A stretch of 61,072 nucleotides of DNA, from contig JAVEDB010000181.1 in assembly GCA_030841185.1 (NCBI GenBank), forward strand, positions 1 to 61,072, written 5' to 3'. The notes under the pieces were generated by a model. The model was not told where the DNA came from, ran no database searches, and saw nothing but the letters and a program-made list of their open reading frames with translations. The DNA is from Actinomycetota bacterium (GTDB lineage Bacteria > Actinomycetota > Actinomycetes > JACCUZ01). Both the position numbers and the translations under genes were made by a program. Below, in pieces: positions 10,631-46,919 of this stretch; the stretch's first letter is position 1, and each line of letters starts with the position of its first letter.

Positions 10631-10792
10631 GGCGCGAAACCTCCTGCTCACGCTCGCCGCTGCGCTCTCCGGGCGCGGCGTTCGGGTAAGGACATCGTCA
10701 GAACCGGTGCCCAGGTCCTATTCTCATGCGATGGTCCTCTTCCGGGTAGTGGCGCGCCCAGGTGTGCGCCAGCACGCCCGGGGGGACGCCAC

Positions 10793-11917
10793 GTGAGGCA
10801 GCAGCGACCCGGCATTCCGCGCACGGTCGGCGCCGCCGTGCCACCCACCGGGGTTGCGGCGGCCCGCGGCACCACCCGCCTGGTGAAGGTCGGCATCTCG
10901 CTCGCCGTCACCGTCACGCTGCTCATCGCCGTCCTGCCGAAGGCCGCGGGTGCCCCCTGGGCGGACATCACCGGGGTGCTGGGACAGCTGCCGCTGCTGG
11001 ACCTGGTCGGCCTGGCCGCGCTGTGGCTGCTCGGCCTCTACGCCTACACGTTCGTTCTCACCGGAGCGCTGCCCGGACTCACCCACCGGCGGGCCCTGAC
11101 GCTGAACCTCACCGGCAGCGCCGTGGCCAACCTCGTCCCCTTCGGCGGAGCCCTCGGCGTAGGCGTGAACTACTCGATGAGCCGCGGGTGGGGCTTCAGC
11201 AAGCAGGCGTTCGCCCTCTACACCCTGGTCTCCAACCTCTGGGTGATCCTCGCGAAGCTCAGCCTGCCCGCCCTCGCCATCGGCGTGCTGGTGCTCACGG
11301 ACAACGTCGCGCACCCGCGGCTCTCGGCGGCGGCGTTCGCGGCGATGTGCGTACTCATTGCTGTCGTCGCAACGGTCGTGGCCCTGCTCGCGAGCGAGCG
11401 GACGGCGGCCCGGCTGGGCAGAGCTGCCGAACGGCTCGCCGGCGCCGGGCTCCGGCTGGCGCGGCGCAGGAGAGCGGTGCACCTCGAGCAGGGCGCCGTC
11501 GCGATGCGCCGGGAGAGCATCAAGGTGCTCCGCGGGGCCTGGCCGCAGCTGTCGCTGGGGATGCTCACCTACTCCGCCCTGCAGGCGCTGCTGCTCTGGT
11601 CCTGTCTGCACCTGCTCGGGAGCACCCTGAGCCCCGCGCAGGTCTTCGCCGGCTACGCCTTGGAGCGCGTTCTCACCATGGTGATCGTGACGCCGGGCGG
11701 CGCCGGCCTCGTCGAGGTGGGCATGGCCGCTCTGCTGGTGGCCTTCGGCGGTGCGCCGGCCGTGACCGCCGCCGGGATCCTGCTCTACCGCGCCTTCACG
11801 TTCGGCATCGAGGTACCTATCGGTGGCACCGGACTACTGGTGTGGTTCTGGCGACGCAGACGGGAACGTCGCTGGACGCTGCCCGGTCCGGTCCGGGTGC
11901 TGGACGAGGCCGCCTGA
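10793..11917 (+). CDS. Lysylphosphatidylglycerol-synthase-TM-like ('flippase-like') integral membrane protein
   Basis: 374 aa and multi-TM. The LVKVGISLAVTV...LTGSAVANLVPFGGALG pattern is typical of the LPG_synthase_TM/UPF0104 family. Confidence 0.7.
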   Translation: MRQQRPGIPRTVGAAVPPTGVAAARGTTRLVKVGISLAVTVTLLIAVLPKAAGAPWADITGVLGQLPLLDLVGLAALWLLGLYAYTFVLTGALPGLTHRRALTLNLTGSAVANLVPFGGALGVGVNYSMSRGWGFSKQAFALYTLVSNLWVILAKLSLPALAIGVLVLTDNVAHPRLSAAAFAAMCVLIAVVATVVALLASERTAARLGRAAERLAGAGLRLARRRRAVHLEQGAVAMRRESIKVLRGAWPQLSLGMLTYSALQALLLWSCLHLLGSTLSPAQVFAGYALERVLTMVIVTPGGAGLVEVGMAALLVAFGGAPAVTAAGILLYRAFTFGIEVPIGGTGLLVWFWRRRRERRWTLPGPVRVLDEAA

Positions 11918-13089
11918 TGCGCATCGCGCACGTGACGGACTGCTACCTGCCCCGGCTTGGTGGCATCGAGATGCAGGTTCACGACCTCGCCGTCCGGCAA
12001 CGTCTCGCCGGGCACGACGTCGAGGTCATCACCGCGACCCAGCCGGACGACGGGGCCGCGGACCCCGCGTGGGTACGCCGAGTGCGCTCCGCCGTCGGCA
12101 ACCCCGCCGTACGCGCCGTGATCGCCGCGTCCAAGGCGCCGCAGACCTTGTCCGCACGCCGGCCCTTCGACGTGGTCCACGTCCACGCGTCCATCTGGTC
12201 ACCGCTCTCCACGGTCACCGCCATTGCCGCCACGCGGCACGGCATCCCGACGGTGTTGACGGTGCACTCGCTCTGGTCGGGGCTGGGCCCACTCCCCCGT
12301 GTCGCCGACACCACGATGCGGCTGCGGACCTGGCCGATGGCCTGGTCCGCCGTCAGCGAGGTCGCCGCCGTCCCGTTGCGCCAGATGCTCGGCCCCGACG
12401 TTCCCGTCTCCGTCCTGCCCAACGGCATCGACCCTGAGGCCTGGCGCGTCAACCCCACGCCGCGGGACAACGACGACGTGACGATCGCGAGCGTCATGCG
12501 ACTGGCCGCGCGCAAGCGACCCCTGCAGCTGTTGCGGATGCTGCGCGAGGTGCGCGACCAGGTGTCCGCCGACATCGGGATCCGCGCGGTCATCATCGGC
12601 GAGGGCCCCGAGCGGCGCACCCTCCAGCGATATGTGGCCCGCCACGGCATGGCCGGGTGGGTGAGTCTGCCGGGTCGACTGGAGCGCGGCGACATCCGCA
12701 CGGTGTTCGCGCAGTCCGACCTCTACGTCGCGCCCGCACGGCTCGAGTCGTTCGGCATCGCGGCGCTCGAGGCACGCTGCGCAGGTCTCCCGGTCGTCGC
12801 CACGGCCCGGGGAGGTGTCGGCGAGTTCGTCACCCACGGGCGTGAGGGGCTGCTCGCCGGGGACGACGGGGACATGGTGCGCGAGCTGGCCGCCCTGATC
12901 GGGTCGCGGTCCCTGCGCGCGGCGATCACCCGGCACAACCGCACGGTCCCGTCGCCGTTGAGCTGGGCAGAGACGCAGAACCGCGCGGACCAGCTGTACG
13001 ACGAGGCGATGGCCCTCGCGGGCGGCCGCCCGCGGAGCCGCGCCGGAGGGCGGGCGCAGACCCGGACGAAGGCCGAGGTGGCCGCGTGA
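11917..13089 (+). CDS. Glycosyltransferase family 4
   Basis: MRIAHVTDCYLPRLGGIEMQVHDL at the N-terminus and ESFGIAALEARCAGLPVVA (E-x7-E) at the C-terminus. The ATG shares 1 nt with the upstream TGA. The upstream part of the 775-aa track ORF is off-frame noise. Confidence 0.85.
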   Translation: MRIAHVTDCYLPRLGGIEMQVHDLAVRQRLAGHDVEVITATQPDDGAADPAWVRRVRSAVGNPAVRAVIAASKAPQTLSARRPFDVVHVHASIWSPLSTVTAIAATRHGIPTVLTVHSLWSGLGPLPRVADTTMRLRTWPMAWSAVSEVAAVPLRQMLGPDVPVSVLPNGIDPEAWRVNPTPRDNDDVTIASVMRLAARKRPLQLLRMLREVRDQVSADIGIRAVIIGEGPERRTLQRYVARHGMAGWVSLPGRLERGDIRTVFAQSDLYVAPARLESFGIAALEARCAGLPVVATARGGVGEFVTHGREGLLAGDDGDMVRELAALIGSRSLRAAITRHNRTVPSPLSWAETQNRADQLYDEAMALAGGRPRSRAGGRAQTRTKAEVAA

Positions 13090-13919
13090 GCACGCACGCC
13101 CCGGCGTACACCGTCGTGTCGTTCCACGCGCACCCCGATGACGAGGCCCTCCTCACATCGGGGTCGTTGGCGCGCGCGGCAGCGGAGGGCCACCGCGTCG
13201 TCCTCGTCGTCGCTACCGCCGGCGAGGCGGGCCTCGCGGCGACGACAGCGCGCGCGGGCGGCCTCGGGGAGCTGCGGATGGCTGAGCTGCGCCGCTCGGC
13301 CGCGGCGCTGGGTTGTGCCCGGGTGGCGCTGCTGGGCTACGACGACTCCGGGATGGCCGACATGGCGAGCTCGGCGGCCAACCGGTTCGCCGCCGCCGAC
13401 GTCGAGGAGGCAGCCCTGCGGCTGGCGGCCATCCTCGCCGAGGAGAGTGCCGACGTCCTCACCATCTACGACCCGGCCGGTGGCTACGGTCACCCCGACC
13501 ACGTGCAGGTGCACCGGGTGGGCGTGCGCGCCGCCGAGTTGGCAGGCACCCGTGTCGTCCTCGAGGCGACCGTCGACCGGACCCTGCTCAGGCGCGCCGC
13601 GCGCATCCTGCGCTGGTGTCGCACGCTGGTGCCGGGACTGGACGTGCCGCCCTTCACCGACGCGTACACCGCGCGGTGCGACCTCACGCACCGCATCGCG
13701 GTGCGCGACTACGCCGTCCAGAAGCGAGCGGCCATGGCGGCGCACGCGAGTCAGTCGAGTGCGGACGGTGGCGACCGGACGCTGGCGTTCTTCCTGCGCC
13801 TGCCGCGGCCGTTGTTCCGGCTAGCCTTCGGACATGAGTGGTACGTCGAGCGCGGCCGCCGACCCGGCGAGCGACCGCTGGACGACATGTTCGCGACGCT
13901 GACCGAGGCGGCCCGCTGA
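13086..13919 (+). CDS. PIG-L/LmbE-family N-acetylglucosaminyl deacetylase
   Basis: VVSFHAHPDDEAL...GYGHPDH motifs. The start GTG overlaps the GT4 stop (GTGA). Confidence 0.85.
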   Translation: MSTHAPAYTVVSFHAHPDDEALLTSGSLARAAAEGHRVVLVVATAGEAGLAATTARAGGLGELRMAELRRSAAALGCARVALLGYDDSGMADMASSAANRFAAADVEEAALRLAAILAEESADVLTIYDPAGGYGHPDHVQVHRVGVRAAELAGTRVVLEATVDRTLLRRAARILRWCRTLVPGLDVPPFTDAYTARCDLTHRIAVRDYAVQKRAAMAAHASQSSADGGDRTLAFFLRLPRPLFRLAFGHEWYVERGRRPGERPLDDMFATLTEAAR

Positions 13920-13920
13920 C

Positions 13921-14700
13921 ATGACGACCTTCGAACTGGAGAAGTACCTCCCGATCGGCGCGCGGGCGCGGAGCCGGCCGTTCATCCTGGGCGAGCTGTT
14001 CATCATCTCGATCCTGGTGTTCGTCTACGACCACATCCGCGACCTGGCCGACGCGCACCGGGCAGCCTCCATCGCCAGCGCCCGCTGGATCATGCAGGCC
14101 GAGCAGCAGCTGCACATCGACGTCGAGCTCCCGTCCAACCTCTGGTTGTCGGCCCACCACGAGCTGGCCGAGCTGTCCAGTTGGTACTACCAGGTGGCGC
14201 ACCTGACGGTGACGCTGCTCGTGCTGGCGTACTGCTACTGGCGACGGCCCGACACCTACCGGTCGGCGCGGAACGCCCTGGTCTCCATCAACGCCATCGG
14301 TCTGGTCATCTTCTGGCTGGTCCCGGTCGCCCCACCGCGGCTGCTGCCCGGCTACGGGTTCATCGACACGACGATCATGTCCGGCGTGGCCAACGCGGCG
14401 GGCTCAGCCGCCAACCCGTACGCCGCCATGCCCTCGCTCCACCTGGCCTGGGCCGCGTGGACCGCCGTCGTCGCGTGGCGGATGTTCCCCGGCATCTGGG
14501 CGCGAGTGGCCTGGGCGGCCTACCCGGTCCTGACGACACTCGTCGTGGTCGGGACGGGGAACCACTACCTGCTCGACGTCTTCGCGGGCGTCGCTGTCGC
14601 CGTCGTGGCCGCTCTCCTCACCGGGCTGATCCGGCCACGCCTGCGAGACAGCGAGAGGTCGCCGCAGGGCTTCCAGTTCGACGTCACCGGAGCCCGATAA
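13921..14700 (+). CDS. PAP2-superfamily membrane protein, AUR1/sphingomyelin-synthase-like (inositol-phosphotransferase type)
   Basis: The PSLH and NHYLLDV (HYxxDV) motifs sit in TM-flanked loops. The gene starts 1 nt after the PIG-L stop. Confidence 0.65.
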   Translation: MTTFELEKYLPIGARARSRPFILGELFIISILVFVYDHIRDLADAHRAASIASARWIMQAEQQLHIDVELPSNLWLSAHHELAELSSWYYQVAHLTVTLLVLAYCYWRRPDTYRSARNALVSINAIGLVIFWLVPVAPPRLLPGYGFIDTTIMSGVANAAGSAANPYAAMPSLHLAWAAWTAVVAWRMFPGIWARVAWAAYPVLTTLVVVGTGNHYLLDVFAGVAVAVVAALLTGLIRPRLRDSERSPQGFQFDVTGAR

Positions 14701-15667: not shown

Positions 15668-16885
15668 CTACTCGCTGCGCAGGCTCGCGGCGAGCACCAC
15701 CCCGGCGACGACCTGGGAGGCCACGACCACTCCGACGAGCGCGGGGATGGAGTGCTCGTAAAGCAACCCGGCGAGGGCGCCGCCGAGCAGCGCGGCCGCC
15801 CCTTGGATGCCGGCGAACACGCCGTACGCCGTGGCCCGCTGCGGCGCCGCGACAAGGTCCGCGACGAGGGCCTTCACGGTCGAGTCCTGGACGCCCACCG
15901 CCGCGCCCCACACCAGCACGCCGACGACCACCACCCAGGCCTGGTGCCGGAACGCGAGGGCCGGCACCGCACTGACGAGCAGCGGCAGCGCGTAGAGGAC
16001 GCGCGCATGCCAACGGTCGTAGGCGTAACCGGTGGCGAGGGCGGCGAGGGCGGCGGCCGCCATCCCCGCGGCGTACACGACCGGGATGCCGGCCAGCCGG
16101 ACGAGGTGGGTCCGGGTGAGGTGGAAGGCGATGATCCCGAAGGTGACCAGGCCGGCCGAGGTGGCCCCCGAGGACAGCGCGAAGAGGAAGAAGGCCCGCG
16201 GGAGACCGGCGCCGACCACCGCCCGGACCACGCCCGCCTGCGGCGCCGGGACCGTCAGGTCGTGCACCGACGGGTCCGGCACCCGCATCCGCATCCAGGT
16301 CAGCAGCCCGATCGCCACCGCCCCGGGCACCGCGAGCACCGCCATCGCGGGCCAGATCACCCCCGTGACGGCGATGAGCGCGGCGACGCACAGAGGTCCG
16401 GCGAACGCGCCGATCTGGTCGAGCGCCTTGTGCACGGCGAACCCGCGGCCGCGGCCGACCGCCCCGGCGGCATGCGCGAGCAGCGCCGACTTCGACGGGC
16501 TGCGGACGGCCTTGCCCGCGCGCTCGGCGAGGATGAGGACGACGGCCAGCGTCAGCCCGGCCGCGCCGACGAACGGGGTCAGCGCGAGCAGCGGCACGCA
16601 CACGGCGGTGAGCCCGTAACCCACCAAGGTCAGCGACCAGTAGCGCCCGGTGCGGTCGGCCAGCGGGCCGAACACCAGCCGCAGGACCAGTGCTGCCGCC
16701 TCGCCGGCTCCGGTGACGAGGCCGACGACGAAGGCCGACGCGCCGAGAGAGGCCAGCAGCGGCCCGTAGATCGAGCGGGCGCCCTCATAGACCATGTCTC
16801 CGGCGAGGCTGACGACGCCGAACCCGACCACGACCCGCCACGGCGACCACCCCGCGACCGCGGTCGTGGACGGCGCCCTGGTCAC
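15668..16885 (-). CDS. MFS transporter
   Basis: 405 aa with about 12 TM segments. The start overlaps the M56 gene stop by 4 nt. Confidence 0.8.
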   Translation of the reverse strand: MTRAPSTTAVAGWSPWRVVVGFGVVSLAGDMVYEGARSIYGPLLASLGASAFVVGLVTGAGEAAALVLRLVFGPLADRTGRYWSLTLVGYGLTAVCVPLLALTPFVGAAGLTLAVVLILAERAGKAVRSPSKSALLAHAAGAVGRGRGFAVHKALDQIGAFAGPLCVAALIAVTGVIWPAMAVLAVPGAVAIGLLTWMRMRVPDPSVHDLTVPAPQAGVVRAVVGAGLPRAFFLFALSSGATSAGLVTFGIIAFHLTRTHLVRLAGIPVVYAAGMAAAALAALATGYAYDRWHARVLYALPLLVSAVPALAFRHQAWVVVVGVLVWGAAVGVQDSTVKALVADLVAAPQRATAYGVFAGIQGAAALLGGALAGLLYEHSIPALVGVVVASQVVAGVVLAASLRSE

Positions 16886-17844
16886 GTGCTCGAGGACGCG
16901 ACGGCGACGGCACTGACCGGGGGCGCGGGGCGGGCCTGCTCGAACAGGTGCTCCGCGTCACGCTGCGCCTCCACGCTCGCCGACACGGTGATGGCGACGA
17001 GGATCGCCAAGGGGAGCAGGGCCGCCGGCCGCCGGCGGGCCGGCGGCGCGAGCAGGGCCTGCACCCGGGCCACGGTCCCCGAGTCCGTGACGTCCAGCGC
17101 CAGCGTGCGCCACCCGCCGGACGGGTCCGGCGGCGAGTGCCGGCGTACGCCGACCCTGGCCAGGGCGTGCGCGACGACGGCGCGGTCGCCGGTGGTGAGC
17201 GCCGCCTCCTCGTCGGCCCATCGCTCGGTCGCGAACCGCACCGCGGGCACGACGGACCGCAGCAGCGGGTTGACCGCGACCGCCAGCTCGGTCGCCGCCC
17301 GGTAGCGATGGTGGTGATGGCGCAGGTGCGCGGCCTCATGAGCCAGCACCGCCCGGCGCTCGGCCGCGGGAAGCGCCGCGAGCAGCGACCGGGAGGCGAC
17401 GATGCGGCCGCGGGCGCCCGGCAGGGCGTAGACGTCGTCGGCGTCGTCGTCCAGGATGACCAGCTGGCCGGGTTCGCCGCCGAGGCGCAGGCAGAGCGCC
17501 CGGACCGCCAGGGTGGCGCGGCAGCGACGCAGCCCCACCCGAAGCCCGCGGGCGCCGAGCACGAGCACCGCGGCGCAGGCCAGGCCGGCGACGCCCTGGG
17601 GCACCGGGTCGAGCGCGGACAGCGAGGCCACCGACCATCGTCCGAGCTCGGCAACCGGGCGCAGCCGGCCGAGCAGGGTGAAGGCAAGCACACCGAGGAC
17701 GAAGCTCGTCGCGGCGCTGAGGACGACGGCGGCGGCGGTCAGGGCGCGGGTGGCTGTCGCGGGCGGCAGCACCCTGCTGATGGGATCGGCCGTCGCGCCG
17801 AGCAGCAGGGCCGCGAGCAGCGGGACGTAGACAGCCACTCCCAC
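16882..17844 (-). CDS. M56/M48-family (BlaR1-like) membrane metalloprotease without extracellular sensor domain
   Basis: HEAAHLRHHH (HExxH) follows four N-terminal TM helices. At only 320 aa there is no PBP/transpeptidase-like C-terminal domain. It lies immediately downstream of the BlaI-family gene. Confidence 0.8.
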   Translation of the reverse strand: MGVAVYVPLLAALLLGATADPISRVLPPATATRALTAAAVVLSAATSFVLGVLAFTLLGRLRPVAELGRWSVASLSALDPVPQGVAGLACAAVLVLGARGLRVGLRRCRATLAVRALCLRLGGEPGQLVILDDDADDVYALPGARGRIVASRSLLAALPAAERRAVLAHEAAHLRHHHHRYRAATELAVAVNPLLRSVVPAVRFATERWADEEAALTTGDRAVVAHALARVGVRRHSPPDPSGGWRTLALDVTDSGTVARVQALLAPPARRRPAALLPLAILVAITVSASVEAQRDAEHLFEQARPAPPVSAVAVASSST

Positions 17845-17846
17845 GG

Positions 17847-18215
17847 CTAGCGGGCCTGCTCTCGGCGCAGCAGGCGCCGCAGCACAGGTACGTCGGCCGG
17901 GTCGAGCTCGTCGAGAAAGCGCGCCAGGACCTGTTCACGGTCGGGCGCCGCGTCCAGACTGCGGCGCATCGCCCGGGCCTGGACCGACGAGCGGTCGGCG
18001 AGGGCATAGGTGAAGGTCCGGCCGCTGCTCTCCCGGGTGACGGCGCCCTTCTCGTGCAGGCGCGCGAGCGTCGTCATCACAGTCGTGTAGGCCAGGTGAC
18101 CCCCGAGTTGCCCGAGGACCTGCCGCGGTGTCATCGCCCCGGCGGCGAGGCTGGCCAGGACCTCGTTCTCCAGCGCACCGCGGTCGCGCCGCGTCGCCTC
18201 CCCGTCCGCCGGCAC
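17847..18215 (-). CDS. BlaI/MecI/CopY-family transcriptional repressor
   Basis: Winged-helix region LENEVLASL...TPRQVLGQL...YTTVMTTLARLHEKGAV. GTG at 18215 is preceded by GGAGG-N4. The longer track ORF would run through the operator box. Confidence 0.8.
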   Translation of the reverse strand: MPADGEATRRDRGALENEVLASLAAGAMTPRQVLGQLGGHLAYTTVMTTLARLHEKGAVTRESSGRTFTYALADRSSVQARAMRRSLDAAPDREQVLARFLDELDPADVPVLRRLLRREQAR

Positions 18216-18227
18216 CGCACCTCCAGG

Positions 18228-18251
18228 TCTACTACTAGGATGATAGTAGTG
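18228..18251. promoter_or_regulatory. Palindromic operator box TCTACTACT-N6-ATAGTAGTG (copy 1)
   Basis: Inverted ACTACT/AGTAGT half-sites, 13 nt upstream of the BlaI-family start and upstream of the divergent DedA gene. The 9+9 nt half-sites recur exactly at 44968-44991. Confidence 0.6.
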
Positions 18252-18370
18252 ATGTTCTTGTCGTCTGTCCTTGTCGCAGGCAAGTGTCGCAGCCCAGGCG
18301 ACATACCGGTTCCCGAGGAGACGCACATGTCGAACAGGCGCCACCGACGAGGCAACGGAGCCGGTCCGGG

Positions 18371-18976
18371 ATGAGCAGCCTCGTCGACAATCTCCTCAAC
18401 GTCCCGCCGGCAGTGGCCTACGCGATCATCGCCGCGCTGGTGTTCGCGGAGGCAGCCTTCTTCGTCGGGTTCGTGCTGCCCGGGGAGACCGCCGTCATCC
18501 TCGGCGGGGTGCTGGCCAGCTCCGGGCACATCTCCCTCACCTGGCTGCTCATCCTCGTCGTCGTGGCCGCGATCGTGGGGGACACGGTCGGCTACGAGGT
18601 CGGCAAGCATGTCGGCCCACGTGTGATGCAGTCCCGATTGCTCCGCCGGCACAGCCGACGCCTCGACGGCGCCCGGGAAAGTCTCCGGCGTCGCGGCGGC
18701 CTGGCGGTCTTCCTCGGCCGCTTCACCGCGTTCCTGCGGGCGGTGATGCCCGCACTGGCCGGGCTGAGCGGGATGCCGTACCTCCGCTTCCTCGCCTGGA
18801 ACGCTGCCGGTGGCCTCGTCTGGGGAGTGGGGGTCACGCTGCTGGGCTTCTTCGCCGGCGCCTCGTACAAGACGGTCGAGAAGGCCGTAGGGCGCACCAG
18901 CGCCGCGTTCCTCGTCGTACTCGTTCTTGGTGCGATCTTCGTCTGGCATCGCCGTCGGCGAAAGGCGCGCGGCTAG
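18371..18976 (+). CDS. DedA-family membrane protein
   Basis: FAEAAFFVGFVLPGETAVILGG...GRFTAFLRAVMP is typical of DedA/SNARE-associated proteins. I chose the ATG at 18371. An in-frame GTG at 18284 is an alternative start. Confidence 0.8.
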   Translation: MSSLVDNLLNVPPAVAYAIIAALVFAEAAFFVGFVLPGETAVILGGVLASSGHISLTWLLILVVVAAIVGDTVGYEVGKHVGPRVMQSRLLRRHSRRLDGARESLRRRGGLAVFLGRFTAFLRAVMPALAGLSGMPYLRFLAWNAAGGLVWGVGVTLLGFFAGASYKTVEKAVGRTSAAFLVVLVLGAIFVWHRRRRKARG

Positions 18977-20502: not shown

Positions 20503-22347
20503 ATGTACCGCCGTTTCCTGCTCGTCGGCGCGCTGCTGGCCGGCGCCCTGCTCGGCGCGGCCGCCCCGGCCGCCGGCGCGACCGAGAGCTGGATGTGGCC
20601 GTCCTCGGGCACCCTCACGGTCTATGGCCACGGCTACGGGCACGGCCACGGGATGTCGCAGTGGGGCGCCTACGGCGCTGCAACCAGTGGCAAGACGTAC
20701 CAGCAGATCGTCGCGTTCTACTACAAAGGCACGACACTCGGCACCGTCATCGACCCGAGCCTGCGGGTCCTGGTCTCGGCCGACACGGACAACGCGACGC
20801 AGGTCGCGCCCGCGTCCGGCCTGACCGCACACACGGCCGATGGCTCGGTCGTGCTGCCCGCGTCCGTCGCGGGCAGCACCGTCACCAGCTGGCGCGCCGT
20901 CCGCAACACCGGCGGCCTCGTTGTGCAGTACCTGGTCGGGACGACGTGGAGGGCGTACGCGGTCGGGGGCAAGGCTACGCACACGGGTGAGGTCTCGTTC
21001 TCGGCGACCGGCAACACGGTGCGCCTCGTGCTCGGCTCGACCTACCGGGCCTATCGCGGCACCGTGGTGGCGGTGCCCACCAGCACGTCGCCGACGGTGC
21101 GTACCGTCATCGGCACGTCGATGACCGACTACCTGAAGTCGGTCGTGCCCTCGGAGATGCCGTCGTCGTGGGCCTCGCCGGCACTGGAGACGCAAGCGGT
21201 TGCGGCGCGCACCTACGCGAGCTATCAGCGAGCGCACAAGCCCAGCGGCCGGTACTACGACACGTGCGACAGCACGAGCTGCCAGGTATTCAAGGGCGCG
21301 GCCGACTACACCGCCGGCGGCTCGCTGATCACCAACCACGAGGCGACCAGCTCGAGCACGGCCGTGACGACGACCGCTAACCGCGTCGTCCTCTACTCCG
21401 GTGCCCTCGCCTTCACCCAGTTCAGTGCATCCAACGGCGGCTGGGCAGCGGCCGGCTCGGTGCCCTACCTGGCGGCGTTCCCGGACCCGTACGACGGGGT
21501 GCACGCGAGCACCGCCCACTCGTGGACCGACACCATCACCGCCGCATCGCTGCAGGCGGCGTACCCGAGCATCGGCACCTTGCGCTCGGTGAGCCTCAGC
21601 CGCGACGGTCACGGCGAGTGGGGCGGCCGGGTGACCAGCATCACTCTTACCGGCACCTCGGGCTCGGTGACCGTGAGCGGCGAGTCGCTGCGCAGCCCGG
21701 CCGGACTGAAGAGCAGCTGGTGGGCGCCGGCCAGCACCGGCTGGGCGCGCTACAACCTGCTGGTCGGCCCGGGCGACTGGAACGGCGACGGCCGGGTGGA
21801 CCTGTTCGGGCGTACATCTGACGGCAGGCTGTGGTTCGCCGCGGGACTCACCGGAGGCACCGGACCGCCGACGCTCGCGGGGGCCGGTTGGGACATCTTC
21901 AGCGCGATCCTCGGACCGGGCGACTTGACCGGCGACGGCCACCCGGACGTCCTCGCCCGGCTCTCGACGGGCCAGCTTCGGGTCTACCCCGGCAACGGGA
22001 CCGGTGGGTTCCTCCCGGCCAACCAGTTCGGCGCCGGCTGGCAGACGTTCACCGCGATGGTCGGCCCCGGCGACCTGACCGGCGACGGGAAGCCGGACCT
22101 GCTGGTCCGCACCAGCACCGGATCCTTGCGGGTCTACCCGGGCATCGGCAACAGTGTCGGCAGCTTCGGCACGCCCATCGAGTTCGGCGCCGGCTGGCAG
22201 ACGTACAACGCCCTGGTCGGGCCCGGTGACTGGGACGGCGACGGGAAAGCGGACCTGCTCGCCCGGACGAGCGACGGGAGTCTGTGGTTGTACCCCGGGG
22301 CCGGAACCGGGGGTTTCCGCTCTCGCGTCCAGATCGGCTCGGGCTGA
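20503..22347 (+). CDS. Secreted SpoIID/LytB-domain protein with C-terminal FG-GAP/VCBS-like repeats
   Basis: A signal peptide, then GHGYGHGHGMSQWGAYG and the SpoIID core (QAVAARTYA...CDSTSCQVF), followed by four ~50-aa GPGD(W/L)xGDGxxDL repeats. Confidence 0.8.
   Translation: MYRRFLLVGALLAGALLGAAAPAAGATESWMWPSSGTLTVYGHGYGHGHGMSQWGAYGAATSGKTYQQIVAFYYKGTTLGTVIDPSLRVLVSADTDNATQVAPASGLTAHTADGSVVLPASVAGSTVTSWRAVRNTGGLVVQYLVGTTWRAYAVGGKATHTGEVSFSATGNTVRLVLGSTYRAYRGTVVAVPTSTSPTVRTVIGTSMTDYLKSVVPSEMPSSWASPALETQAVAARTYASYQRAHKPSGRYYDTCDSTSCQVFKGAADYTAGGSLITNHEATSSSTAVTTTANRVVLYSGALAFTQFSASNGGWAAAGSVPYLAAFPDPYDGVHASTAHSWTDTITAASLQAAYPSIGTLRSVSLSRDGHGEWGGRVTSITLTGTSGSVTVSGESLRSPAGLKSSWWAPASTGWARYNLLVGPGDWNGDGRVDLFGRTSDGRLWFAAGLTGGTGPPTLAGAGWDIFSAILGPGDLTGDGHPDVLARLSTGQLRVYPGNGTGGFLPANQFGAGWQTFTAMVGPGDLTGDGKPDLLVRTSTGSLRVYPGIGNSVGSFGTPIEFGAGWQTYNALVGPGDWDGDGKADLLARTSDGSLWLYPGAGTGGFRSRVQIGSG
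21766..22344 (+). repeat. Four tandem protein-level FG-GAP-like repeats inside the SpoIID-domain gene
   Basis: GPGD starts at 21766, 21913, 22063 and 22219, giving periods of 147, 150 and 156 nt. Each unit reads GPGDxxGDGxxDLxxRxxxGxLxxYPG...GAGW. Confidence 0.8.
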
Positions 22348-22417: not shown

Positions 22418-24790
22418 ATGAGCACCGTCGTCGCCGATCCCGCTGATCCAGCAAAGAGTACGAAGTTTGGACTCTCGCGCGAGCGGCCGACTGCGGATTT
22501 GGTACTCGACTTCCTGCCAGCAATAGTCACGGTCCTTCTCGTCGTGACGGCGCTGCTCGCGACCCACACTCCCCCAAGCGCAGTTCTGCGATACGCCGCC
22601 TACCTCGTGTTCGCCGTTCTGCTACCGGGGACGCTGGTGCATCGTGCCCTTCGCGGCCGATCCCCGATGCTGCTGACTGATCTGGCGCTGGGCGGTGCCA
22701 CCGGCCTCGCACTCGAGCTCGCCGCCTGGGCGATCTTCACTTCCCTGCATGCGCAAGCCTTCCTGTGGATCTGGCCGCTTCTCGTAGTCATCCCATTCGT
22801 GGCTGTGCCGGCGCTGAGAAGGCACTGGAACGACCGTCCAGCCGTGACGGAGCGGAGTCGCCTCACGTCCTGGCTGGTGGCCGGCGCCTTCCTGTACTTC
22901 ACCCTTGGCCTCGCCGTCGGGTCCATGCGGACGACGGGATTGCCCCCGCACGCCAACCTGTACTACGAGGACATCTACTGGCACCTCTCGATCGCGGAAG
23001 AGTTGACGCGTCAGGTGCCACCCGAGGTGCCCCAGATGGCCGGGCACACCCTGCACTATCACTGGTTCTCGAACGCTCACATGGCGGCGTCGCATCTGGT
23101 GAGCGGCGTGAACCTTCCCGTCATCATGCTTCGCCTGTGGCTCTTGCCCGTCGTGGCAATCATTCTCGGTCTGGTCGTCGCGGTGGCACGGAAGGCGACC
23201 GGGTTAGCGTGGACTGGAGCTGTCGCATGCATCATCGTTGTTGCACCAGCGTTGCTCATGCCGTGGAGATGGTTTCACCCGTACAACTCCGCGGCGCTTG
23301 TCGAGGGAAGTCCCTCGCAAGTATTCGGCTTGGTCTTTCTGCTGCTGGCTTGCCACGTGCTCCTCGACCTCGTCAGAGGACGCAGCGTGCGATGGGGATG
23401 GGTCGTTCTCTTTCTTGCCGCAGCTGCGGCGCCCGGAAGCAAGCCCTCCGTGCTGCCAGTGTTGCTCGGCGGCCTAGGCGTGGTGGTTGTCTTCGATCTG
23501 TTCCGCCGGCAGCCGATCCGGGCGCCCATCGGCGCGATCCTGCTGATCGGGGCATCTGTACTCATCAGTAGCCCGCTCACGGCCCAGAGTGCCGCCGGCT
23601 CCAGCCTCAAGGTGTTCGGTCTTCTCACGTTTGAAAAGCCGTGGAACGCTTTCATCAAAGTCCACAAGCTCCCGGGAACGGGCGATGGCCGGTTCATTTA
23701 CGACGCGCACAAGCCGGGCGCCCTCGCACTCGCGCTGATACTCGTGGCAGCCCTGCTCCTCCAGTACGCATGGGTCCTGGCCGGCCTGACGCTCGTCGGA
23801 CGACGAACCCGTCGGGACCCTGCGGTCTGGCTTCTGAGCGGCTGCGTTGTCGCCGGCTTGGCCGCGATGCTTGTCGTAGACCATCCTGGCGCCTCTGAGG
23901 TCTACTTCGCCAAGACAGTCACTCCGCTCGCTGCGATCCTTGCAGCCTGGGGTCTGGCCGCCGCCTTTCCCGCAATCACGACTGGTCCCTCACGAGTACG
24001 CCTCGCCCTCGGGCTAGCCGCCGGCGTTGCGGTGGGAGCGATCTGCGCGGTGTTGAGCAGCAAAAGCGCCCCACGACCAACCGGACCTAGCGATTATCCG
24101 CATGCCCTGCTGGCGCCCTTCGCCATCATGCTCGTCGTCGCCGTCGTCGTCGCCGTCGCCGGCGCCGCCGGGTTCCTGCTGCGGCGGAGACTTCCGGACG
24201 GCTCGCTGAGGATCTTCGGGGCCGCCGCCATCGCGGCTCTGCTGGCCGTGTTCTTGGTGCAGACACCGTTCCACACCGCGCAATCCGTTCGAGCCGCCAC
24301 GCGCGGCACGTCGGCGGCTCCCAAGCCCTGGGGGGTGACCGCTCAGGAAGCGGCCGCCACCGCCTGGCTTGCCCGACACGCAAGCTCAGATGATGTGGTT
24401 GCGACGAATGTCCACTGCAAGTTCAAGGTCACCAGACGAAACTGCGACGCCCGCGCGTTCTGGGTGTCGGCGCTCGGTGCCCATCGCGTGCTGATCGAGG
24501 GCTGGGCGTACACGGAGGAAGCGCTCCAACGCCAGGGCCTCAACGGTCGAGGCTTCGTCACCCAGCCCTTCTACGACCCCAAGCTGTTCGCGGCCAACGA
24601 AGGAGCCTTCACGGATCCAACCCCGGCCGGGTTAGCGGAGCTTCGGGACAAGCACGGCGTCCGGTGGCTCTTCGCTGACCGCGCGGCCGGTCCCGTCTCA
24701 CCACGCCTGGAACAAGTGGCCCGACTTCGGTTCAGTAACGCTGATGTGAAGATCTTCGAGCTTCCGGGCCCAAGCGCTGCGACCACCTAG
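22418..24790 (+). CDS. Large polytopic membrane protein, GT-C-like glycosyltransferase candidate (paralog 1)
   Basis: 790 aa with more than 12 TM segments. A loop motif reads YYEDIYWHL..AEEL...LHYHWFSNAHMAA. The C-terminal soluble domain carries N.HC...CD.R.F...AL...VL.EGW. Both motifs are shared with 29753-32173. Confidence 0.55.
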   Translation: MSTVVADPADPAKSTKFGLSRERPTADLVLDFLPAIVTVLLVVTALLATHTPPSAVLRYAAYLVFAVLLPGTLVHRALRGRSPMLLTDLALGGATGLALELAAWAIFTSLHAQAFLWIWPLLVVIPFVAVPALRRHWNDRPAVTERSRLTSWLVAGAFLYFTLGLAVGSMRTTGLPPHANLYYEDIYWHLSIAEELTRQVPPEVPQMAGHTLHYHWFSNAHMAASHLVSGVNLPVIMLRLWLLPVVAIILGLVVAVARKATGLAWTGAVACIIVVAPALLMPWRWFHPYNSAALVEGSPSQVFGLVFLLLACHVLLDLVRGRSVRWGWVVLFLAAAAAPGSKPSVLPVLLGGLGVVVVFDLFRRQPIRAPIGAILLIGASVLISSPLTAQSAAGSSLKVFGLLTFEKPWNAFIKVHKLPGTGDGRFIYDAHKPGALALALILVAALLLQYAWVLAGLTLVGRRTRRDPAVWLLSGCVVAGLAAMLVVDHPGASEVYFAKTVTPLAAILAAWGLAAAFPAITTGPSRVRLALGLAAGVAVGAICAVLSSKSAPRPTGPSDYPHALLAPFAIMLVVAVVVAVAGAAGFLLRRRLPDGSLRIFGAAAIAALLAVFLVQTPFHTAQSVRAATRGTSAAPKPWGVTAQEAAATAWLARHASSDDVVATNVHCKFKVTRRNCDARAFWVSALGAHRVLIEGWAYTEEALQRQGLNGRGFVTQPFYDPKLFAANEGAFTDPTPAGLAELRDKHGVRWLFADRAAGPVSPRLEQVARLRFSNADVKIFELPGPSAATT

Positions 24791-43498: not shown

Positions 43499-44893
43499 AT
43501 GTCGATCTTCACCAAGCGTCGACTTGCGGTGGTCGCGGCGGTCAGCGCCGCAGTCGTGTCCGCGGGCACTTGCCCGGCGCTCGCCGCCGCCGGAGGAACC
43601 ACCGGACCGAGCAGCAGCGACGCGCCGTACCTCGTGCGTCACGTCCCGGGCGTCACCCTCACCAGTCTGCTCACCGCAGGCGACTCGGTGGGCGGCTACC
43701 GGATGGCGGGTACGCCGGACGGCCTGGGTGCCTTCGACAACGGCGACGGGACCTTCACGGTCCTGATGAACCACGAGTTCACCGCCGCGTCGAGCGTGCC
43801 TCGGTCGCACGGCAACACGGGAGGTTCGTTCGTCTCACGCTGGGTCATCGACAAGACGACCCTGCGGGTCCTCTCCGGTCGTGACCAGATCACGAACCTC
43901 ATCCTTGCCAGCCCGACCGGCTCCAAGGACCTCAACCGGTTGTGCTCGGCGGACCTGCCTGCCCTCAGCGCGTTCTACAACCCGGCCACGGGTCTCGGCT
44001 ACAACGGCCGGATCTTCATGGACGGTGAGGAGAGTGCGCCGACAGGTCGTGCCTTCGGCCATGTCGTCTCGACCGGGGACAGTTACGAGCTCTCGGCGCT
44101 CGGCCTGGCGGGCTGGGAGAACCTCCTGGCGAACCCGGCCACCGGTGACCGCACCGTGGTGGTCGGCCAGAGCGACGGCGGGAGCCAGAACGTATACGTC
44201 TACGCGGGCACCAAGCAGAGCACCGGTACGCCGGTCGAGAAGGCCGGCCTGACCAACGGCGTACGGAAGGCCATCACGGTCACCGGCCACCTGACGGAGA
44301 GCGGCGCCGTCGACTTCCCGAGCACCGCCCAGCCGTTCACGCTGACGGACTCCGGCACGGCGTTCGACCGTCCCGAGGACGGCGCCTGGGACCCCAGCCA
44401 CCCGAACGACTACTACTTCGTGACCACGGCCAGCATGAGCAAGCACAGCCGACTGTGGCGGGCCAGTTTCGTCGACGCCAGCCAGCCCGAGCTCGGCGGC
44501 ACCATCACCAAGGTGCTCGAAGGACCCACTGACGACAGCCCCAGCTCGGTCGGACCGAAGATGATGGACAACATCACCGTCACGAACCGCGGCCAGATCG
44601 TCATCCTGGAGGACCCGGGCGACAACGCCTACCTCGCGGGCGTCTACCAGTACGACATCGCCAGCGGCACGGCCCGGCGGATCGCGGACCACGACCCGCA
44701 GCGGTTCACGCCGGGTGGTGCGTACTTCGACACCATCGACGAGGAGTCCTCGGGAGTCATCCCGGCGCCGTTCCTCGGCGAGGGGAAGTTCCTGTTCGAC
44801 GACCAGAACCACACCAAGGTCGCCGACCCGGCGATCGTCGAGAAGGGGCAGCTGCTCCTGCTGACCGTCCCGCCAGGGCAGCCGTTGAGCTAG
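43499..44893 (+). CDS. Secreted PhoX/DUF839-like protein (possible Tat signal)
   Basis: The N-terminus TKRRLAVVAA...ALA looks like a signal peptide. PDGLGAFDNGDGTFTVLMNHE and DRPEDGAWDP...DNITV...ILEDPG resemble the PhoX-type beta-propeller phosphatase family. Confidence 0.5.
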   Translation: MSIFTKRRLAVVAAVSAAVVSAGTCPALAAAGGTTGPSSSDAPYLVRHVPGVTLTSLLTAGDSVGGYRMAGTPDGLGAFDNGDGTFTVLMNHEFTAASSVPRSHGNTGGSFVSRWVIDKTTLRVLSGRDQITNLILASPTGSKDLNRLCSADLPALSAFYNPATGLGYNGRIFMDGEESAPTGRAFGHVVSTGDSYELSALGLAGWENLLANPATGDRTVVVGQSDGGSQNVYVYAGTKQSTGTPVEKAGLTNGVRKAITVTGHLTESGAVDFPSTAQPFTLTDSGTAFDRPEDGAWDPSHPNDYYFVTTASMSKHSRLWRASFVDASQPELGGTITKVLEGPTDDSPSSVGPKMMDNITVTNRGQIVILEDPGDNAYLAGVYQYDIASGTARRIADHDPQRFTPGGAYFDTIDEESSGVIPAPFLGEGKFLFDDQNHTKVADPAIVEKGQLLLLTVPPGQPLS

Positions 44894-44899
44894 CCAGCA

Positions 44900-44940
44900 G
44901 CAACGAGGGGTGGGTGCCGAGCGCACCCACCCCTCGTTGC
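44900..44940 (+). terminator. Intrinsic-terminator-like hairpin (18-bp perfect stem, 5-nt loop)
   Basis: GCAACGAGGGGTGGGTGC (44900-44917) pairs with GCACCCACCCCTCGTTGC (44923-44940) around the loop CGAGC. It starts 7 nt after the TAG stop. There is no U-tract, which is common in high-GC actinobacteria. Confidence 0.65.
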
Positions 44941-44967
44941 GTGCTCAGGTTGTCCCCGACGGAGCCG

Positions 44968-44991
44968 TCTACTACTGTCCCGATAGTAGTG
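44968..44991. promoter_or_regulatory. Palindromic operator box TCTACTACT-N6-ATAGTAGTG (copy 2)
   Basis: Both 9-nt half-sites and the spacing match 18228-18251 exactly. It lies 25 nt upstream of the uppP ATG, between the terminator and the SD (GAGGAG). Confidence 0.6.
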
Positions 44992-45016
44992 CCTACCGAC
45001 TGAGGAGCTCTCTCCC

Positions 45017-45964
45017 ATGGATCCGATCACGTACACGCAGGCTGTGGTGATCGGCATCCTGCAGGGCGTCACCGAGCTGTTCCCCATCTCCAGCCTCGGG
45101 CACGCGGTGCTCGTCCCCGCGTGGATCGGCGGCAGCTGGTCAGACCTGGTCACGCAGTACGGCGTGGAGGACAGCGCAAAGGCGCCGTACCTGGCGTTCA
45201 TCGTCGCCCTGCACGTGGCGACCGCGATCGCCCTCCTGGTGTTCTACTGGCGCGACTGGGTCGCGATCATCGGGGCCTTCTTCCGCACATTGCGCACCCG
45301 CAAGGTCGAGACGTCCACCGAGCGGCTCGCGTGGCTCATCGTCATCGCGACGCTCCCGGTGGGCATCACCGGGCTGGCTCTCGAACACGTGTTCCGGGTG
45401 CTCTTCGCCAAGCCGCTGGCAGCGAGCATCTTCCTCACGATCAACGGGCTCATCCTGCTTGCGGGGGAACGGCTGCGGCGACGCGCGGACGCGCGCGCCG
45501 AGGTCCACGAGAGCGTCGGCGCGGGTTCTCCCGATGCGCAAGACGAGGCGGTCCACCACCCCGGGTACGACGGCGCCAGCCGCCGACTGGAGACGCTGAG
45601 CTACCGGGAGGCGGCCATCATCGGAGTGTTCCAGACCTTTGCGCTGCTCGCCGGGATCTCCCGCTCGGGCATCACGATGGTGGGTGGGCTGGTGCGCGGC
45701 CTCAGCCATGAGGACGCCGCCAAGTTCTCCTTCCTGCTGGCGACCCCGGTGATCTTCGCCGCCGGTGTGCTCAAGATCCCCTCGCTGCTCGGGCCGGCAG
45801 GAGACAAGATCCACGGCCAGGTGGTGGTCGGGGCGATCGTGGCCGGGCTCGCCGCCTACGCCAGCGTTCGGTTCCTCACCCGCTACTTCACGACCCGCAC
45901 CTTGACCCCGTTCGCGATCTACTGCCTCGTCGCCGGTGTCGCCTCGCTCGTAAAGTTCGCGTAA
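45017..45964 (+). CDS. uppP: Undecaprenyl-diphosphate phosphatase (BacA/UppP), with an internal hydrophilic insertion
   Basis: GILQGVTELFPISSLGH and GISRSGITM are the two signature motifs. The ~45-aa charged segment (RRRADARAEVHES...) between the two halves is longer than I expect for this family. Confidence 0.9.
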   Translation: MDPITYTQAVVIGILQGVTELFPISSLGHAVLVPAWIGGSWSDLVTQYGVEDSAKAPYLAFIVALHVATAIALLVFYWRDWVAIIGAFFRTLRTRKVETSTERLAWLIVIATLPVGITGLALEHVFRVLFAKPLAASIFLTINGLILLAGERLRRRADARAEVHESVGAGSPDAQDEAVHHPGYDGASRRLETLSYREAAIIGVFQTFALLAGISRSGITMVGGLVRGLSHEDAAKFSFLLATPVIFAAGVLKIPSLLGPAGDKIHGQVVVGAIVAGLAAYASVRFLTRYFTTRTLTPFAIYCLVAGVASLVKFA

Positions 45965-45989: not shown

Positions 45990-46919
45990 ATGGCTCGTGC
46001 TCTGACCATCTCTGCCCGTGGCGAGTCCCCCACCGTCACCGAGACCCCGTCGCCGGAACCGGGCCCCGGCCAGGTGCGTGTTGCTGTGCAGGCCGCGTCG
46101 GTGAACGGCATCGATGCGTACGTCGCAGCTGGGTACGTCTGGGACTCGATGCCGCACCGGTTCCCGGTGGTCCTCGGCCGTGACTTCGCCGGAACCGTCG
46201 AGGCCGTGGGCACCGACGTCACCAGCGTGCGCGTCGGTGACCTGGTGGCCGGAGTCGTCACCGGAATGGACCTCTACCTGGGCGTGATCGCGGAGCACGT
46301 GGTGGTCGACGAGGACGGTGTCGTGGCCGTACCCGACGGTGTGACGGCGGTGCAGGCCGCCGCTCTCGGGCTTGCCGGGGTCTCGGCGCGTGACATGGTC
46401 GACTCGCTCTCCCTGACAACCGACGACGTCGTTCTCGTCTCCGGCGCCACCGGCGGGGTCGGCGCCCTCGCGGTGCAGCTGGCTGCCGCGACCGGTGCGA
46501 CGGTGCTGGCCACGGCCCGGCCCGACGCGACGGAGTTCGTCCGCGGTCTCGGCGCGCACACTGTCGTCGACCACACCGAGGACCTGGCAGCGGCCGTCGC
46601 CGCGGCGGCGCCGGACGGCGTGACCGCCGTGGCGCACGCCGCCGGGGACGCCGCCGCCCTGGCGAAGACCCTGCGGCCAGGGGGACGGCTCGCATCCCTG
46701 CTGGGTGCCACCGCGGAGCAGGTCGGCCGCGACGACATCACCGTCACCCCCGTGGGCGCCCAGTTCACACCCGAGAAGCTACGGGCCTTGCTGGACGCGG
46801 TGGCAGCCGGTCAGCTGCGGGTGCCGGTCGGGCAGACCTTCTCACTAGAAGAGGCGACACAGGCCCTCGGTGCGTTCGGCGAACCGAAGCAGGGCAAGCT
46901 GGTCATCACTCTCGACTGA
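45990..46919 (+). CDS. MDR-family NAD(P)H:quinone-type oxidoreductase
   Basis: GQVRVAVQAASVNGID...VLVSGATGGVGALAVQLA...GKLVITL motifs. Confidence 0.8.
   Translation: MARALTISARGESPTVTETPSPEPGPGQVRVAVQAASVNGIDAYVAAGYVWDSMPHRFPVVLGRDFAGTVEAVGTDVTSVRVGDLVAGVVTGMDLYLGVIAEHVVVDEDGVVAVPDGVTAVQAAALGLAGVSARDMVDSLSLTTDDVVLVSGATGGVGALAVQLAAATGATVLATARPDATEFVRGLGAHTVVDHTEDLAAAVAAAAPDGVTAVAHAAGDAAALAKTLRPGGRLASLLGATAEQVGRDDITVTPVGAQFTPEKLRALLDAVAAGQLRVPVGQTFSLEEATQALGAFGEPKQGKLVITLD

Follow-up and report, generated by a model that had tools for sequence, protein, structure and literature searches.

We examined a 61,072-nucleotide metagenomic contig of an Actinomycetota bacterium (JAVEDB010000181.1), the whole of which is referred to here as the window, and found a 25-bp palindromic BlaI-type operator sequence, box 2, directly in front of uppP, the gene for undecaprenyl-diphosphate phosphatase. 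This observation is confirmed and lies far beyond chance. The best explanation as a whole, which we consider probable, is that box 2 is the operator of a BlaI-family repressor encoded 27 kb away, placing the recycling of a carrier lipid under a proteolytic switch; the interpretation of the boxed genes as a carrier-lipid regulon is supported by comparative genomics. Peptidoglycan and other polymers of the envelope depend on that lipid, undecaprenyl phosphate (C55-P, recovered from its diphosphate, C55-PP), as their limiting carrier. To our knowledge, the ways in which bacteria sense and adjust its recycling have been worked out only for a few Firmicutes, and the DedA/UptA flippases were recognised only in 2022-23. 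The features on which the argument draws are the following, in window coordinates.

15668..16885, minus strand: MFS transporter, 405 amino acids (aa), third gene of the repressor operon (PF07690, MFS_1)
16882..17844, minus strand: sensor-less BlaR-like membrane zinc metalloprotease, 320 aa (PF01435, AlphaFold2 model)
17847..18215, minus strand: BlaI/MecI-family repressor, 122 aa (PF03965, 66.5 bits, 3.3e-18)
18227..18251, no strand: box 1, GTCTACTACT-aggat-GATAGTAGTG
18371..18976, plus strand: DedA-family (COG0586-type) membrane protein (PF09335, 67.5 bits)
44900..44940, plus strand: terminator-like hairpin ending the upstream gene (43499-44893), arms 44900-44917/44923-44940
44950..44978, plus strand: candidate uppP promoter, read by eye, TTGTCC (44950-55), 17-nt spacer, TACTGT (44973-78)
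44967..44991, no strand: box 2, predicted BlaI-type operator, GTCTACTACT-gtccc-GATAGTAGTG, core TACTAC-N7-aTAGTA
45002..45007, plus strand: Shine-Dalgarno sequence GAGGAG of uppP, 10 nt 3' of box 2
45017..45964, plus strand: uppP, BacA family undecaprenyl-diphosphate phosphatase, 315 aa (NF001395, PF02673)
45990..46919, plus strand: zinc-type alcohol dehydrogenase/quinone oxidoreductase, after a gap of 25 nt, with its own Shine-Dalgarno sequence

Box 2 is composed of GTCTACTACT (44967-44976), the spacer GTCCC (44977-44981) and GATAGTAGTG (44982-44991), and lies 25 nt 5' of the uppP ATG (45017). The arrangement GTCTACTACT-N5-GATAGTAGTG occurs in exactly two copies in the 61-kb window, with approximately zero expected by chance. 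Searching the window with CTACTA-N9-TAGTAG returned two zero-mismatch matches (18229-18249 and 44969-44989) and no others even at one mismatch, compared to a mean of 0.00 in 100 dinucleotide-preserving shuffles of the window, and the pattern TACTAC-N7-GTAGTA at up to three mismatches gave no additional window sites beyond boxes 1 and 2. The second copy directly before uppP that had been called in the original prediction is thus borne out. All 10+10 half-site bases are identical between the two boxes, while the spacers (aggat vs gtccc) and the flanks are unrelated; with identity confined to the half-sites, selection on the half-sites fits better than recent duplication of a longer segment. The geometry is also the same at both sites, with the box followed by a Shine-Dalgarno sequence within 2-10 nt and then a start codon, so that the transcription start must be located within or just upstream of the box. 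Only 2 nt separate box 1 from the Shine-Dalgarno sequence of the repressor gene (18220-24, plus-strand CCTCC), and 11 nt separate it from the GTG start of that gene (18215); dedA, divergent from the repressor gene, begins on the other side of box 1.

The hairpin that precedes box 2 begins 7 nt past the TAG stop (44891-93) of the open reading frame before it and has 18-nt arms of perfect complementarity around a 5-nt loop, with a predicted RNA folding energy of -45.4 kcal/mol (z = -8.65 vs shuffles). It carries no T-tract, and an intrinsic-terminator scan made no call there; we regard it as a terminator-like element that would shield uppP from transcription arriving from upstream. Box 2 falls, as had been described, between this hairpin and the Shine-Dalgarno sequence and ATG of uppP, and being outside the hairpin it is not merely a part of the terminator. 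Where blaI and uppP are divergent neighbours, as in several relatives, a box between them might act in blaI autoregulation only, with uppP a bystander. In the window, uppP is 27 kb from the repressor gene, blaI, and behind a strong hairpin, and dedA holds the divergent place beside blaI; as uppP nevertheless has a perfect box, the box would serve uppP and not only the autoregulation of blaI. The -10 hexamer of the candidate uppP promoter, TACTGT, falls within box 2. A known riboswitch or leader RNA in the uppP leader was considered and rejected, as Rfam gave only sub-threshold matches due to the hairpin. The 464-aa open reading frame directly 5' of the hairpin (43499-44893, plus strand) has no Pfam or NCBIfam match and is kept beside uppP in another sample (L094).

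The boxed genes are well identified. By its profile matches, 45017-45964 is a true uppP, scoring 477 bits over its full length with the equivalog NF001395 (cutoff 394) and 243.5 bits (3.8e-72) with PF02673 (BacA). No hairpin or terminator is present between uppP and the zinc-type alcohol dehydrogenase gene, which may be co-transcribed with it; of the earlier proposal that the box is placed to control uppP alone, the isolation from upstream by the hairpin stands and the word “alone” is too strong. COG0586 DedA proteins are proposed undecaprenyl phosphate flippases, with an acidic pair (E39 and D51 in YghB) and an arginine pair (R130 and R136) at the tips of the re-entrant helices (PMC10127716). 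In an alignment of the window DedA with Escherichia coli YghB, E39, R130 and R136 do not vary, and all six actinobacterial proteins have Glu in place of D51. Its scores with the UptA equivalogs are below cutoff (NF052604, 54.5 bits vs 250; NF052605, 53.2 vs 300), so it is not an orthologue of the Bacillus/Staphylococcus UptA. From its family, and from operons joining dedA and uppP in related loci (L001, L014, L015 and L101), we infer that it is a C55-P flippase; the suggested UptA-type translocase therefore holds at the family level (PF09335 and the YghB residues) and fails at the level of the UptA equivalogs. All three targets encode membrane proteins. The names first given to uppP, the repressor, the MFS transporter and DedA were all upheld, and no beta-lactamase domain was present among the neighbour genes scanned, in agreement with the claim that no beta-lactamase gene is near the sites.

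The repressor matches PF03965 (Penicillinase_R) well above the gathering threshold of 22.6 bits, with residues 13-117 of its 122 covered, and no ligand-binding domain besides PF03965 is detectable in it. It has zero cysteines and no CxC motif; a CopY-type metal sensor was rejected on the missing cysteine and on a TIGR02698 score of 21.8 bits (cutoff 121.95). Its best and only match among PDB sequences is 2g9w (E = 1.5e-3), named “conserved hypothetical protein” in PDB, which we take to be Mycobacterium tuberculosis BlaI (Rv1846c). Repressors of this family would be cleaved at a specific site in the C-terminal dimerisation helix. LAR-F-LDEL of the window repressor aligns by eye with LVH-F-VER of 2g9w, and the N-F cleavage site of the Staphylococcus aureus repressor presumably aligns with the same LAR-F-LDEL segment; both are leads only. 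The repressor, protease and MFS reading frames abut or overlap (gaps <=2 nt), with the MFS gene start overlapping the protease stop.

The protease scores 39.4 bits with PF01435 (M48; gathering threshold 20.3), over residues 133-213 only. Its HExxH motif, H169-E170-x-x-H173, and the block E207-R208-W209-A210-D211-E212 are invariant in an alignment of 40 homologues. NCBI labels some homologues “M56 family”. The AlphaFold2 model (mean confidence score, pLDDT, 91.9) has helices at residues 4-25, 28-58 and 83-121, then a beta-sheet together with the HExxH-bearing helix, and lastly a helix at 273-303. The four long helices would represent transmembrane helices TM1 to TM4, with the HExxH domain predicted between TM3 and TM4. 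A C-terminal extracellular penicillin-binding sensor domain, of the class D beta-lactamase-like kind, was found neither by Pfam nor in the model, and only 17 residues follow the last helix. Foldseek gave no match at E <= 0.001, and its best-ranked and highest-probability matches were M48, M56 and related minimal zinc metalloproteases (BepA, S. aureus BlaR1, Ste24, selecase), the top one being the M48 protease BepA (E = 0.2); phmmer against PDB sequences gave no meaningful match. Outside the protease domain, conservation across the 40 homologues is concentrated in the predicted TM2-TM3 loop, with A65, G68 and W70 invariant and S71, P80 and P82 >=90% conserved, making this loop a plausible candidate sensing surface.

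The comparison from the UppP side covered 55 loci (550 kb), made up of 52 loci of a scan of GTDB species representatives and the three loci L001-L003. L001 and L002 belong to UppP homologues that are among the closest, at about 80% identity, and tblastn with the five window proteins gave the arrangements of L006, L037, L015 and L016. The arrangements that include blaI, with two metagenome contigs in addition, are listed below, arrows giving gene direction.

L001 (Actinomycetia metagenome-assembled genome): protease<-blaI, uppP->dedA, box CTACTATCGAAGTAGTAGTAC in the intergenic region
L002/L003 (Kribbella metagenome-assembled genome, same sequence): M56/M48 protease<-blaI, uppP, with the L002 box CTACTACACGATTAATAGTAG in the intergenic region
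L006: protease<-blaI, uppP divergent, intergenic box
L037: protease<-blaI, uppP divergent, intergenic box with an 8-nt spacer
L015: protease<-blaI, dedA->uppP, intergenic box
L016: protease<-blaI, uppP->MFS, intergenic box
L063/L084 (metagenome contigs): blaI, uppP, box between them

Allowing at most one mismatch, the box was matched seven times in the 550 kb, in six loci of five genomes, and only in loci that carry blaI; by our own estimate, about 0.1 matches would be expected from base composition. One locus, L014, has a dedA->uppP operon without blaI. The exact 18-base version of the box gave 32 matches in the metagenome collection, 29 of which were dismissed as chance, since their contigs are poor in GC (29-51%) and contain no related genes; all three matches in contigs of >=61% GC (L063, L084 and L087) adjoin a blaI homologue. 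For the window organism, the search added nothing to the regulon. In L087 (61% GC), the same 23-bp operator (1941-1963) lies 10 nt 5' of a BlaI gene paired with a 542-aa BlaR-like protein, the C-terminal domain of which is not recognisable as a penicillin-binding domain; this suggests that the operator type extends beyond the uppP-linked subfamily.

Eight look-ups starting from the repressor or the protease (homologues 43-80% identical) gave the following arrangements.

L088/89: dedA <- box -> blaI->MFS
L090/91: box variant -> blaI->protease
L092/93: blaI only
L097/98: PAP2 phosphatase <- perfect box -> blaI->protease
L099/100: dedA <- two boxes -> blaI->protease
L101/102: dedA<-uppP <- three boxes -> blaI->protease
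L104, Modestobacter excelsi (cultured, GCA_005930495): uppP <- box -> blaI->protease->UPF0014, and 2 kb off a DedA gene
L105, Streptosporangium subroseum (GCA_040681955): perfect box -> blaI->protease

Five of the eight (L088, L099, L101, L097 and L104) have a gene of the C55-P cycle divergent from blaI, with the box in between. The best NCBIfam matches of the L097 PAP2 protein are the SepP and YbjG-type undecaprenyl-diphosphatases, both below cutoff, and a PAP2-type enzyme in the position of the BacA-type UppP suggests that a function, C55-PP dephosphorylation, is what is regulated, rather than a gene lineage. Taken together, no fewer than 12 separate genomes or metagenomic populations have a blaI-like gene, usually with the protease, divergent from uppP, uppP-dedA, dedA-uppP, uppP-MFS, dedA or PAP2, and in every one of these cases the shared intergenic region contains a TACTAC-N7-GTAGTA box. 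Boxes precede orthologous repressor genes in all 14 of the related genomes or populations examined (those of L090 and L092 being two-mismatch variants). About 25 boxes were gathered altogether, and the consensus operator is yTACTAy-N7-rTAGTAs; the repressor and protease are adjacent, with overlapping or abutting frames, in the window and in 11 of these 14. The conservation check proposed for uppP and dedA orthologues was in this way positive, though patchy. MFS orthologues follow uppP in L016 and blaI in L088.

Other samples containing the same population gave the same junctions: L094 and L095 reproduce the box-uppP junction, with an identical box 2, and L096 reproduces the junction of dedA with blaI-protease-MFS. 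In L101, as in the window, uppP and blaI have separate boxes. The private uppP box of the window, the recovery of both junctions in other samples and the separate boxes in L101 together indicate that the box travels with its target genes. The proposed coherence of the target set is borne out by the uppP, dedA and MFS genes of relatives, with the amendment that the regulon is accessory, patchy and includes further envelope genes elsewhere.

The sequence, the non-random occurrence, the gene identities and the conserved co-localisation of box, repressor, protease and targets are established. On the mechanism that we propose from them, a repressor dimer on box 2 would cover the -10 region and transcription start of uppP and keep its expression low, and the downstream alcohol dehydrogenase gene may be repressed along with it. 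Box 1 would autoregulate the repressor-protease-MFS operon, and control of dedA on its other side is probable too. Derepression would follow when the four-TM zinc metalloprotease encoded in that operon inactivates the repressor, as the BlaI/BlaR1 and M. tuberculosis BlaI/BlaR pairs lead one to expect, in response to some cue from the membrane or envelope. More C55-PP would then be dephosphorylated (by UppP, or PAP2 in some relatives), more C55-P flipped (by DedA) and more of the MFS transporter made, with a larger supply of recycled carrier lipid as the net effect.

Several points weigh against this reading. All of the regulation, from binding of the boxes and repression to proteolysis of the repressor and the kind of signal, is inferred in silico. 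A strict sigma-70 consensus scan gave no match at the site of box 1 or box 2, and with no consensus called at either, the overlap of box and promoter is a reading by eye. Control of dedA in the window is less certain, as box 1 is 119 nt upstream of its ATG. The enzyme originally named an M56 protease passes the Pfam M48 profile and fails M56 (PF05569, 17.5 bits vs a cutoff of 31, E = 0.0025), so that it is only M56-like, and its Foldseek matches to the BlaR1 structures 8exq, 8exs, 8exp and 8exr are weak (E = 0.36-1.6, TM-score 0.3-0.42). In L088, the repressor and box are present with no adjacent protease. The blaI-box-uppP module is patchy across UppP orthologues: UppP loci of Nocardia, Mycobacteroides, Mycolicibacterium, Kutzneria and others have neither repressor nor box, nor do several metagenome-assembled genomes with a UppP of 65-76% identity, and the same is true of L004-L013 (UppP 65-79% identical) except L006. 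The window is also a single metagenomic contig, and any uppP copies or boxes elsewhere in the genome fall outside its scope.

The same circuit could instead serve inducible resistance, with the protease detecting a carrier-lipid-targeting antibiotic or its damage (bacitracin-like, amphomycin-like, lantibiotic or ramoplanin types being candidate drugs) and with UppP/PAP2, DedA and the MFS transporter as resistance determinants. We regard this as a real possibility, though not the expected one. Overexpression of UppP/BacA is a classic mechanism of bacitracin resistance, which counts in its favour, as does the membership of an MFS transporter in the module, the patchy, accessory-like distribution of which, with integrases or insertion sequences adjoining it in L097/L098 and L093, would also be expected of resistance genes. 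Antibiotics that antagonise DedA proteins have been described, along with many COG0586 paralogues in Actinobacteria (PMC10127716). However, the UppP under regulation is orthologous to the module-free UppP of related genomes (65-80% identity) and no obvious extra paralogue, the loci examined have neither a biosynthetic gene cluster nor an ABC-type bacitracin transporter beside the module, and the protease lacks an extracellular ligand-binding domain. That the repressor binds the boxes and is released by a ligand or another non-proteolytic signal, while the metalloprotease does other work such as membrane-protein quality control, we consider unlikely: the M48 score and the structural match to BepA point that way, as do the repressors without an adjacent protease in L088/L089 and L092, but these are set against the adjacency of repressor and protease in most relatives, PF05569 matches recorded for the orthologues in L002 (unmarked) and in L101 and L105 (flagged weak), an order of TM1-3, protease domain and TM4 equal to that of the N-terminal half of BlaR1 (PMC9834060), and a repressor with neither Cys/CxC nor a further ligand-binding domain. 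Least probable by far is that box 2 is a relic of an ancestral blaI|uppP locus, a chance palindrome, or part of a promoter or terminator. The divergent blaI|uppP order is common in relatives, which implies a rearrangement in the window lineage and would suit a relic, whereas a relic would hardly retain 20/20 half-site bases beside fully diverged spacer and flanks. A chance expectation of approximately zero, the position outside the hairpin and the lack of any matching Rfam family argue against the other variants, and two other samples reproduce the junction of box and uppP, with the L101 uppP also having its own box.

Additional genes with boxes were observed in the related loci, each in only one or two genomes. 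In L016, a UPF0014/FetB-like permease is encoded downstream of the protease, with a perfect box (1281-1301) 66 nt 5' of its gene, and in Modestobacter excelsi the UPF0014 gene (L104 7030-7812) comes immediately after the protease, which suggests that this permease is a recurrent regulon member. In L101 a box (10915-10933) is found 5 nt 5' of a GT87 glycosyltransferase gene, of a polyprenyl-phosphate-sugar-dependent family, and in L105 a box (7229-7247) is found about 100 nt 5' of a teichoic-acid-like operon of IspD/SDR and two Glyphos_transf genes. If real, the L101 and L105 boxes would extend the regulon to pathways that consume the carrier lipid. The window also contains a plus-strand operon of membrane-lipid/glycolipid type (10793-14700; LPG_synthase_TM ~10793-11917, GT4 ~11914-13089, PIG-L 13086-13919, PAP2_3 13921-14700), about 1 kb from the MFS stop (15668) with an EAL-domain gene between. 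No box is present 5' of this operon in the window. The LPG_synthase_TM operon is also near a blaI homologue in L088, L090/91, L092 and L099, and the box-like sites TCTACTACGAAGTTGGTAATAGA and TCTACTCCACGACGGGTAATAGA are located 180-320 nt 5' of it in L090 and L092, where, more tentatively, the LPG_synthase_TM-GT4-PIG-L operon may be a boxed target.

At the borders of the module, L093 has an IS4-family transposase gene (10549-11772) directly 3' of its blaI homologue, replacing the PIG-L/GT4/LPG_synthase cluster of the syntenic L092, and L097/L098 have integrase and resolvase genes just beyond the protease; these borders appear rearrangement-prone. Additional cell-envelope genes are found 1.5-3.5 kb downstream of dedA in the window, one (20503-22347, plus strand) for a 614-aa protein with a SpoIID domain (lytic transglycosylase regulator) and four FG-GAP repeats, the other (22418-24790, plus strand) for a 790-aa polytopic membrane protein without a Pfam match. 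Immediately before dedA, a 15-codon open reading frame, MSNRRHRRGNGAGPG (18327-18374, plus strand), has a strong Shine-Dalgarno sequence (GAGGAG) and an ATGA overlap with the dedA start. An Arg-rich upstream open reading frame ends beside dedA in L015, and L088 and L099 have no clear equivalent. The 15-codon frame may be a translationally coupled leader, or chance in GC-rich DNA.

If the proposed operator function of box 2 is correct, the data point to a compact, conserved circuit in Actinomycetota that ties a BlaI/BlaR-type proteolytic switch to UppP/PAP2, DedA and an MFS transporter. This would offer a candidate physiological role for a large class of sensor-less BlaR proteins, the M. tuberculosis example included, as well as independent genomic support for a DedA subfamily working with UppP, and it would make the uncharacterised MFS transporter and UPF0014 permease candidate players in the carrier-lipid cycle. 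Cultured carriers of the circuit are available in Modestobacter excelsi and Streptosporangium subroseum. A broader and speculative extension, which we rate as rather doubtful, is that the sensor-less BlaR-type proteases widespread in Actinomycetota, M. tuberculosis BlaR among them, are direct membrane sensors of the undecaprenyl phosphate cycle in a homeostatic loop with the BlaI repressor, and that the Firmicutes BlaR1 was derived by gaining a penicillin-binding domain. The protease could then detect an accumulation of C55-PP in the outer leaflet or a shortage of C55-P, possibly through the extracytoplasmic TM2-TM3 loop, and the feedback with the repressor may tune C55-PP dephosphorylation, C55-P flipping and the consumers of the carrier lipid (GT87 and the teichoic-acid-like operons).

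Among known systems, carrier-lipid recycling is under envelope-stress control in Firmicutes: the sigma-M regulon of Bacillus subtilis (bcrC, uptA/yngC) and the BcrR-bcrABD system of Enterococcus faecalis provide an inducible C55-PP phosphatase, to which B. subtilis adds an undecaprenyl phosphate flippase of the DedA family. The output proposed here is alike, but the regulators there are an extracytoplasmic function sigma/anti-sigma pair or a membrane one-component protein, and here a BlaI-type repressor with a membrane protease. In the BlaI-BlaR1 and MecI-MecR1 systems, a PF03965 winged-helix repressor binds an inverted repeat overlapping promoters, including its own, and induction occurs by proteolytic loss of the repressor (PMC9834060, PMC7253601, PMC5473688). 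As in these systems of S. aureus and Bacillus licheniformis, the window encodes a PF03965 repressor co-transcribed with a polytopic zinc metalloprotease whose protease domain is predicted between TM3 and TM4. Unlike them, its operator is TACTAC-N7-GTAGTA rather than TACA/TGTA, its protease ends 17 residues after TM4 without a penicillin-binding sensor and falls below the Pfam M56 cutoff, and the predicted targets are uppP/PAP2, dedA and MFS genes instead of beta-lactamase or PBP2a.

A resemblance is also seen to M. tuberculosis BlaI (Rv1846c) and BlaR (Rv1845c), which are likewise actinobacterial, with a BlaR that has no extracellular sensor domain (PMC5473688) and a regulon beyond beta-lactamase. 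That regulon includes blaC and, in the account of Sala 2009 cited there, reaches ATP synthase and cytochrome bd, and for uppP no more than induction alongside blaI-blaR by amoxicillin-clavulanate is described (PMC5473688). The sequence similarity between the two repressors is weak (E = 1.5e-3), however, and the M. tuberculosis regulon as described is not reported to include uppP or DedA. In Clostridium thermocellum, DNA affinity purification sequencing of BlaI_0696 and BlaI_1845 revealed tiny autoregulated regulons of BlaR1-like and cell-wall-related or unknown genes, with no beta-lactamase, and operators of inverted 6-mers about 5 nt apart (GTCTAT-N5-...; PMC8457756). These resemble the window system in lacking a beta-lactamase and differ from it in half-site and targets, with no link to uppP or DedA reported there. 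A full-text search, with most subscription journals outside it, found no publication linking BlaI/BlaR to uppP, BacA, DedA or undecaprenyl. Given the C. thermocellum regulons and the wider one of M. tuberculosis, a role of BlaI outside beta-lactam resistance is not new in itself, and of the new role initially claimed for this regulator family it is the carrier-lipid link that is, as far as we found, unpublished. What is new here, the evidence points to, is a known switch architecture joined to a conserved carrier-lipid output.

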